From Escherichia coli (lineage in GTDB: Bacteria > Pseudomonadota > Gammaproteobacteria > Enterobacterales > Enterobacteriaceae): a stretch of DNA of 2,395 nt. The stretch lies in assembly GCF_003334335.1 (NCBI RefSeq), contig NZ_QOWQ01000088.1; one strand, given 5' to 3'. Under the pieces are notes generated by a model that was not told the DNA's origin, did no database searches, and saw only the letters and a program-made list of their open reading frames with translations. This document shows, piece after piece, positions 1,118-2,168 of the stretch. Each line of letters begins with the position of its first letter. Position 1 is the first letter of the stretch. The position numbers were made by a program, and so were the translations under genes.

Positions 1118-1486
1118 ATGACCGAGCGCATAGAATTTGTTTTGCCTTACCCGCCGACGGTGAACACTTACTGGCGACGCCGTGGCAGCACATATTTTGT
1201 ATCAAAAGCCGGGGAGCGTTATCGCCGGGCAGTGGCGCTTATTGTTCGCCAGCAGCGACTGAAATTAAGCCTGTCCGGAAGGCTGGTAATCAGGATTATT
1301 GCAGAGCCACCGGATAAGCGTCGTCGTGACCTGGACAATATTCTGAAAGCACCGCTGGATGCGCTGACGCACGCGGGGTTGTTAATGGACGATGAGCAGT
1401 TTGATGAAATCAATATTGTACGTGGCCAGCCAGTATCTGGTGGACGGCTGGAGATAAGAATTACAGAGGTGGGTGTGCATGAATAA
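1118..1486 (+). CDS. rusA: Crossover junction endodeoxyribonuclease RusA (Holliday junction resolvase)
   Basis: 122-aa ORF whose ATG immediately follows the upstream stop (TAAATG at 1115-1120). The translation carries recognisable RusA blocks: LPYPPTVN.YW near the N-terminus, PDKRRRDLDN (catalytic aspartate cluster), DALT.AGLL.DDEQ, and GGRLEIRITE near the C-terminus. The size matches the ~120-aa RusA family. Confidence 0.9.
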   Translation: MTERIEFVLPYPPTVNTYWRRRGSTYFVSKAGERYRRAVALIVRQQRLKLSLSGRLVIRIIAEPPDKRRRDLDNILKAPLDALTHAGLLMDDEQFDEINIVRGQPVSGGRLEIRITEVGVHE

Positions 1487-2168
1487 CCAGTATTTACAGT
1501 TTGTTCGTGAGCAACTCATGATTGCCACTGCAGATCTCAGTGGGTCGACAAAATGCCAGCTGGAAGCCTGGCAGGAAAATGCCCTGTTCGATACAGGGCG
1601 TTACAGACGCAAAAAAATTCGTTACCGCGATGAGGTAACCGGAAAAATGATCACGCGGGATAATCCCCCGATCCAGGGTAAACAATCACTGGCGAAAGGC
1701 TCATCAATTGCGCTGGTCAGTCCTGTTGAGTTTGCAACATCATCGTGGCGGCGTGCCGTTCTGGAACTGGAAGAACATCAGAAGGCGTGGTTGTTGTGGT
1801 GTTATGGCGGAAACATTTGCTGGGAGCATCAGATCGCGATAACGCAGTGGGTGTGGAGTGAATTTAAAACTCAGTCCGGCTCCAGAAAAATTGCAGTGAA
1901 AACGCTGGAGCGTGTGAAGAAGTTGATCTGGCTGGCGGCACAGGATGTCAGAGGATGGGTTACCGGGTGTGAGGTCTACCAGAGACAGGAGCTTGCCAGA
2001 CTGTGTGGAGTTAAGCCTGATAACTGGAGCCATAATTATGCGAACTACTGGCGTGAGATGTGCGATATTTTTAAGCGCCTCGATAGAGAATCCTTGATTT
2101 GCTCCGTGAAAATAAGAGCGCAACAAAAAGCGACCTTTTCACGACGAGATATTGCAAAAGTCAATTAA
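1479..2168 (+). CDS. Putative late-gene antitermination protein Q-like (assignment by synteny, not by recognised motif)
   Basis: Open frame with stop TAA at 2166-2168. I prefer the ATG at 1479 (MNNQYLQ..., 229 aa) over the GTG at 1473 because GAGGT at 1466-1470 gives an 8-nt spacer; this start overlaps the rusA stop by 8 nt. The gene sits immediately downstream of rusA and about 70 nt upstream of a strong intrinsic terminator, the canonical position of Q in lambdoid phages. I do not recognise a diagnostic Q motif and see no CxxC zinc-finger pairs, so the function is inferred from gene order. Confidence 0.5.
   Translation: MNNQYLQFVREQLMIATADLSGSTKCQLEAWQENALFDTGRYRRKKIRYRDEVTGKMITRDNPPIQGKQSLAKGSSIALVSPVEFATSSWRRAVLELEEHQKAWLLWCYGGNICWEHQIAITQWVWSEFKTQSGSRKIAVKTLERVKKLIWLAAQDVRGWVTGCEVYQRQELARLCGVKPDNWSHNYANYWREMCDIFKRLDRESLICSVKIRAQQKATFSRRDIAKVN

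Follow-up and report, generated by a model that had tools for sequence, protein, structure and literature searches.

Does a gene that lies where Q is expected, and whose product lacks the paired CxxC motifs of lambda Q, encode a Q antiterminator? This question is raised by positions 1479-2168 of a 2,395-nucleotide (nt) stretch of Escherichia coli DNA (contig NZ_QOWQ01000088.1), the whole of which is referred to here as the window. The original prediction had read the gene as a Q antiterminator from a family other than that of lambda, possibly a divergent one, or else as another protein of the nin region, in which case Q would lie elsewhere. As described below, the gene almost certainly encodes a canonical, full-length antiterminator of the Q82 family, the late-gene switch of a lambdoid phage or prophage. 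All features are given on the plus (+) strand.

Family membership and the missing zinc finger

The Q gene encodes a Q82-family late-gene transcription antiterminator of 229 amino acids (window Q) and runs from an ATG at 1479 to a TAA at 2166-2168. A Shine-Dalgarno-like GAGGTG, read from the sequence, is located 7 nt 5' of this ATG, inside the end of rusA (1466-1471). According to the listing of open reading frames (ORFs), the frame is open back to a GTG at 1473, yet all homologues begin with MN.QYLQ at the ATG at 1479. Q proteins have been divided into three families without obvious mutual sequence similarity, Q21 (PF06530), Q-lambda (PF03589), and Q82 (PF06323) (PMC9388147). Residues 4-220 of the window Q matched positions 1-217 of the 220 positions of Pfam model PF06323, 'Phage antitermination protein Q' (E 5.3e-82), and the protein also matched PHROG 304, 'anti-termination protein Q-like' (E 4.7e-103). 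PF03589 and PF06530 were not among the Pfam matches even at E <= 10, and a search of NCBIfam gave no match at E <= 0.01, which is uninformative. The alignment with the type protein, phage 82 Q (CAA63332; X92588.1), annotated in X92588.1 as 'phage 82 Q antiterminator', was gapless over 229/229 amino acids, with 66% identity and 79% positives (E 2e-114). Because of the PF06323 and PHROG 304 matches, the identity to phage 82 Q, and the family scheme of PMC9388147, the gene is assigned as a canonical member of the Q82 family.

Among 5.8 billion proteins, 2557 relatives of the window Q were found, and PF06323 was present in all of the best 120 of these 2557, many of which are named antitermination protein Q. 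IMG/VR contains proteins that are 100% identical to the window Q. The closest complete E. coli genomes show 95.5% DNA identity across the whole window, and at least 80% of the window is present in approximately 1237 E. coli genomes. In the best examined E. coli relative (95.5% DNA identity), the gene is labeled 'bacteriophage antitermination protein Q' by the Prokaryotic Genome Annotation Pipeline (PGAP), holin, lysozyme, lysis protein, and terminase genes are located 3' of Q, and there is no second Q gene between Q and the lysis genes. With rusA on its 5' side, promoter-like elements and a terminator on its 3' side, and lysis genes further 3' in this relative, the position of the gene fits the Q82 family. 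Both family membership and genomic position are established.

The gene is of an already known kind and is annotated as such in public databases, and the finding is fully explained. A suitable label would be Q82-family (PF06323) late-gene antiterminator, with the PR'-type promoter, the pause element, and the terminator described below marked as well. The original prediction had suggested a profile comparison with the Q families, and this returned a strong match to the Q82 family (PF06323) rather than to a non-Q family. The reading as a Q from a non-lambda family is borne out by PF06323, PHROG 304, and the 66% identity to phage 82 Q, and the predicted location after rusA and before a terminator (2234-2257) was correct. 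The full-length, canonical match to the Q82 family does not agree with a divergent member, and the idea of another nin-region protein is rejected by the two profile matches and the homology to phage 82 Q.

The absence of paired CxxC motifs had also been noticed correctly. The window Q contains seven cysteines (residues 26, 108, 114, 164, 176, 195, and 208) and not a single CxxC motif, its sole close cysteine pair being C108-x5-C114, whereas phage 82 Q is entirely free of cysteine. Among 81 aligned members of the Q82 family, which reach down to approximately 20% identity, none (0/81) has two CxxC motifs, and position 108 is the only cysteine column with more than 30% occupancy. The near-invariant residues of this alignment are R10, W104, Y109, W183, W191, D202, and L206; in an alignment of the lambda-Q family, C118, C121, C144, and C147 are invariant. 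The zinc ribbon has been reported to be confined to the lambda-Q family (PMC9388147), and AlphaFold models led Wen et al. (2022) to the same view (PMC9371919). The window Q is without a zinc finger because the Q82 family never had one, and the missing CxxC pairs are a normal trait of this family and not an oddity of the window Q. A metal site at C108-x5-C114-x2-H117 was also considered, but 82 Q has S, R, and H at these three positions, with moderate conservation limited to C108, and the idea was rejected.

Neither a sequence search nor a profile search of a 2026 copy of the PDB gave any significant match, and according to these searches and PMC9388147, Q82 alone among the three Q families lacks an experimental structure. 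An AlphaFold 2 (AF2) model based on the 81-sequence alignment reached a mean predicted local distance difference test (pLDDT) score of 85.8 and a predicted template modeling (pTM) score of 0.74, with a confident helical core at residues ~82-222 and a low-confidence segment at residues ~21-80. The core includes a predicted helix-turn-helix (HTH) at residues 169-195 (codons 1983-2063), consisting of a helix (169-176), a turn, and the start of a long helix (180-222). This region has pLDDT values above 90, is conserved in the family, and includes the near-invariant W183 and W191. It is a putative DNA-binding motif, and a C-terminal HTH has been described for an AlphaFold model of 82Q (PMC9371919). 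When the AF2 model was submitted to Foldseek, AlpA ranked first (probability 0.91, E 0.2), with no match at E <= 0.001. Comparison of the Q82 and lambda-Q family alignments by hhalign gave a probability of 9%, which leaves homology at the profile level unsupported. The predicted fold is closest to lambda Q and AlpA, a suggestive resemblance that agrees with PMC9371919, homology not being established. The counterpart of the low-confidence N-terminal segment forms a ring within the RNA exit channel in lambda Q, Q21, and AlpA, and ring formation by Q82 has been left open (PMC9388147). Lambda Q (PF03589) differs from the window Q in that it carries a zinc ribbon 'arm' and shares no detectable sequence or profile similarity with it, and phage 21 Q (PF06530) and Pseudomonas AlpA likewise have no sequence similarity to the window Q.

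Late promoter, pause element, and terminator

A PR'-type late promoter overlaps the end of the Q gene. Its -35 hexamer, TTGCAA (2152-2157), lies inside the last Q codons, 17 bp 5' of the -10 hexamer, is invariant in a 7-locus alignment, and was present in each of the 86 Q82-family loci recovered, either where it was expected or within the sequence printed. The 17-bp spacer, AAGTCAATTAAATCGCG (2158-2174), the first 11 nt of which are the last Q codons and the stop codon, is a candidate Q binding element (QBE), as its type co-varies with the type of HTH over these 86 loci. The -10 hexamer, TATGTT (2175-2180), aligns with TATATT, TACATT, and TATACT of relatives and would occupy -12 to -7 relative to a probable transcription start (+1) at 2187.

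This start is based on the published description of the late promoter of phage 82 (82PR'), the transcript of which starts with AAA and has GCC at +15 to +17, after an extended -10-like pause element (Bird et al. 2016, PMC5001585). Also described are an A/T-rich stretch, a U at the +25 pause site, and pauses at +25/+26 (PMC5001585), and a G at +24 follows from the remark that a one-nt insertion at +18 puts a G at the pause site (PMC5001585). The window sequence AAATCTGATATTTTGCCGATTTTGTA fits all of these features if +1 is 2187, with a transcript beginning with AAA. The sigma70-dependent pause element (2192-2203) would then consist of the extended -10-like TG-A-TATTTT (+6 to +14), with TG at 2192-2193 and TATTTT at 2195-2200, and the GCC discriminator (+15 to +17) at 2201-2203, followed by the G at 2210 and the T at 2211. 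By analogy with 82PR' (PMC5001585), the predicted pause sites are +25 (T) and +26 (A), at 2211-2212, a candidate Q loading point; for lambda Q, the pause is at +16/17 instead. Positions +1 to +26 (2187-2212) are identical at 24/26 positions to PhiR47_2, a phage with a Q that shares 97% identity with 82 Q. TTGCAA, the -10, and AAAT.TG.TAT (with TGATAT) are conserved over the 86 loci, and the conserved cis elements are an established part of this locus.

A direct repeat, TAAATC-N3-TAT.TT, occurs with a 20-nt spacing at 2166-2180 and 2186-2200. The -10 region of the promoter thus has a second copy in the -10-like region of the pause element, in line with the sigma70-rebinding model. A CII site of the lambda/434 type for an antisense paQ promoter (TTGYN6TTGY) had no match in the window.

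The inverted repeat and predicted fold at 2230-2257 correspond to a strong intrinsic terminator, A6CCACC-GCCA-GGTGGT8. It consists of a perfect 11-nt inverted repeat (2230-2240/2245-2255) with the G+C core CCACC-GCCA-GGTGG, and T8 at 2250-2257, and judging from its symmetry it looks bidirectional. Of the related loci compared, most have a terminator-like hairpin at a similar distance, although this is not clear for every one of them, and in phage 434 a terminator is annotated there. The inverted repeat UAUUUUGCC ... GGCAAAGUA is predicted to form a further hairpin in the leader RNA (2195-2227), and the RNA from +1 to +76 folds as leader hairpin and terminator hairpin with -27 kcal/mol (z -5.5). 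As a conserved structure, RNAalifold retained the terminator hairpin only, and phage 434 is without the leader hairpin, so the latter is not universal. A search of Rfam gave sub-threshold matches only, to isrK (19.4 bits, gathering threshold 50) and Phe_leader (28.3 bits, gathering threshold 55), and both were treated as chance or terminator-driven. The match to isrK, an Hfq-binding small RNA of Salmonella, spans 2178-2256 and overlies the predicted terminated leader transcript of ~70 nt.

For 82Q, it is known that readthrough depends on the QBE and the sigma70-dependent pause and is stimulated by NusA, and that the protein binds the beta-flap tip helix (PMC4914094). By homology to phage 82, the window Q would have the same antitermination activity, with a comparable pause, QBE location, and NusA dependence, and the following steps are modeled on the phage 82 literature (PMC4914094, PMC5001585, PMC9388147, PMC12360218). 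Host sigma70 RNA polymerase would initiate at 2187 from the late promoter overlapping the end of Q, after which region 2 of sigma70 would rebind the extended -10-like element at +6 to +14, and the complex would scrunch and pause at ~+25 (T2211). Q, which is thought to act as a dimer, would be located at the QBE in the promoter region, bound probably via its C-terminal HTH, and would contact the beta-flap tip helix. With help of NusA, Q would pass to the paused complex and then travel with the polymerase. The Q-modified polymerase would resist pausing and termination and read through 2230-2257, the first target of Q-dependent readthrough, and through subsequent terminators, and would so reach the genes for lysis and morphogenesis, whereas without Q transcription would stop at 2230-2257 and yield an RNA of about 70 nt. 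Q21 is independent of NusA (PMC12360218), and as 82Q can load on complexes with long RNA, this protein may lack a closed nozzle (PMC9388147).

Mosaicism of the allele and alternative readings

The locus resembles that of phage 82 in the length of Q (229 amino acids), its place after rus, the -35 within the end of the gene, the nearby terminator, and the promoter and pause architecture. It differs in the C-terminal part of the protein (residues ~160-229), including the predicted HTH, which is closest to Qs of Klebsiella and Enterobacter phages, and in the promoter spacer, which is GTCAATTAAATCGCG in the window compared to CTGGATTAAAAATCA in an 82-like phage. At the DNA level, nt 1479 to ~1950 are closest to the type of E. 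coli phage 689R5, with mostly 80-88% identity and 73% at the junction, and nt 2169-2253 are again closest to this type. In between, nt 1960-2168 are closest to Klebsiella/Enterobacter phage types (63-80% across windows of comparison), and over nt 1989-2138 these types reach 73-80% identity versus 48-60% for the E. coli types. The 3' third that is closest to the Klebsiella/Enterobacter types (~1960-2168) comprises the C-terminal HTH module, the -35, and the spacer.

Over the 86 Q82-family loci, HTH type and promoter spacer type show a perfect association. The VKPDNWSHNYA type of HTH pairs with the spacer TCAATTAAAT, with minor variants in motif and spacer, and the VT(T/S)KNWS(K/E)TFT type pairs with TAGATTGAAA or CTGGATTAAAA, while the same initial transcribed sequence is seen with both HTH types. 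This association fits a C-terminal HTH that reads a QBE in the spacer, with simple linkage as the alternative, since fewer than 170 nt separate the HTH from the spacer and part of the spacer belongs to the last Q codons. Tentatively, the allele could have arisen in nature as a hybrid of two Q82-family lineages by a domain swap, with the N-terminal two-thirds and the initial transcribed region of the 689R5 type and the C-terminal HTH and the spacer of the Klebsiella/Enterobacter type, and if the association reflects recognition there would be at least two classes of QBE specificity. Recognition, as opposed to linkage, would place the DNA-recognition code of Q82 proteins at residues ~177-195 and at approximately -29 to -13 of the promoter. 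Mosaics in which HTH module and spacer travel together could guide experiments on the recognition of the DNA site by Q82 proteins.

Several points weigh against the reading of the locus as a canonical Q82 system. The comparison with 82PR' is based on a verbal description, plus a proxy phage with a 97%-identical Q (PhiR47_2). The promoter hexamers match the consensus at only 8/12 positions, and the late promoter was assigned by homology because a generic scan (threshold 9/12) did not call it. The C-terminal third of the window Q is of another lineage than that of 82 Q, so that the two proteins may differ in QBE specificity. Finally, in the closest E. coli relative (95.5%) the gene is part of a prophage in which several genes are pseudogenes, truncated DUF551, DUF1737, and YdfR among them, so that in some hosts the gene may belong to a defective element.

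The last point would also be expected if a genuine Q82 gene were carried by a cryptic or defective prophage, as a remnant or with a host-level role and without a productive late operon. The large number of E. coli genomes with most of the window (~1237 with >=80%) is typical of resident prophage remnants as well. However, the Q ORF is of full length, like that of 82 Q, and free of frameshifts, the promoter, pause element, and terminator are intact and conserved, and the relative retains holin, lysozyme, and terminase genes 3' of Q, which makes a defective prophage unlikely. Such a prophage would in any case concern the state of the prophage and leave the identity of the gene as a Q82 member unaffected.

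Descent of the window Q from a lambda-Q family member by degeneration and loss of the zinc ribbon is very improbable, as the cysteine ligands are missing from the entire Q82 family and not from the window Q alone, and neither the Pfam searches, hhalign, nor Foldseek linked the protein to the lambda-Q family at the thresholds given above; any kinship would be ancient and at the level of families, rather than a recent loss in the window gene. The lack of a recognizable zinc finger, of an NCBIfam match, and of a sequence relative in the PDB would suit some other protein of the nin region, or an ordinary regulator that binds DNA, with the true Q elsewhere, but this can hardly be upheld and is effectively refuted by the full-length homology to the Q82 family and the experimentally characterized 82 Q, the 82PR'-type promoter and pause element directly 3' of the gene, and the lack of a second Q before the lysis genes in the relative.

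Upstream genes and downstream module

The window contains three ORFs, all in the same direction on the plus strand, which encode a DUF968/YdfU-type protein, RusA, and Q. The first (53-1117) encodes 354 amino acids and matches PHROG 96, 'HNH endonuclease' (E 1e-164). The CxxC motifs of the window sit in this ORF (C118WHC, C278MTC, and C312RKC), and its product is likely a zinc/HNH-type protein. The second ORF is rusA (1118-1486), coding for a Holliday-junction resolvase (PHROG 34, E 5.5e-57; NCBIfam RusA, E 2.9e-26). Its last 8 nt, including the stop region, overlap the start of Q at the ATG at 1479 (1479-1486, ATGAATAA), which would be compatible with translational coupling. Between rusA and Q, the window lacks the small ORF ylcG/orf45, which phage 82, PhiR47_2, and CobraSix carry at this place. 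Phage 434 likewise has ylcG before Q, but there rusA is not a neighbor.

The sequence from 2232 to 2395 forms a downstream module that is common to phages with a different Q family; its identity to several Stx2 and other phages is 83-93%. Two of these phages were examined (Stx2_EH2201 and PhiR5_1), and in both the module is preceded by a 126-amino-acid Q of PHROG 79 and an unrelated promoter region. Because homology to phages with another Q family breaks at the terminator, Q, promoter, and pause site appear to form an exchangeable cassette that ends at this terminator, and such exchange would be expected of a Q with a cognate loading site. The boundary of homology is sharp and lies at ~2232. 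Within the module, an ATG at 2381 (MLKQQ...) opens a small ORF, which corresponds to a hypothetical protein of 65 amino acids in the E. coli relative and is conserved 3' of different Q types.
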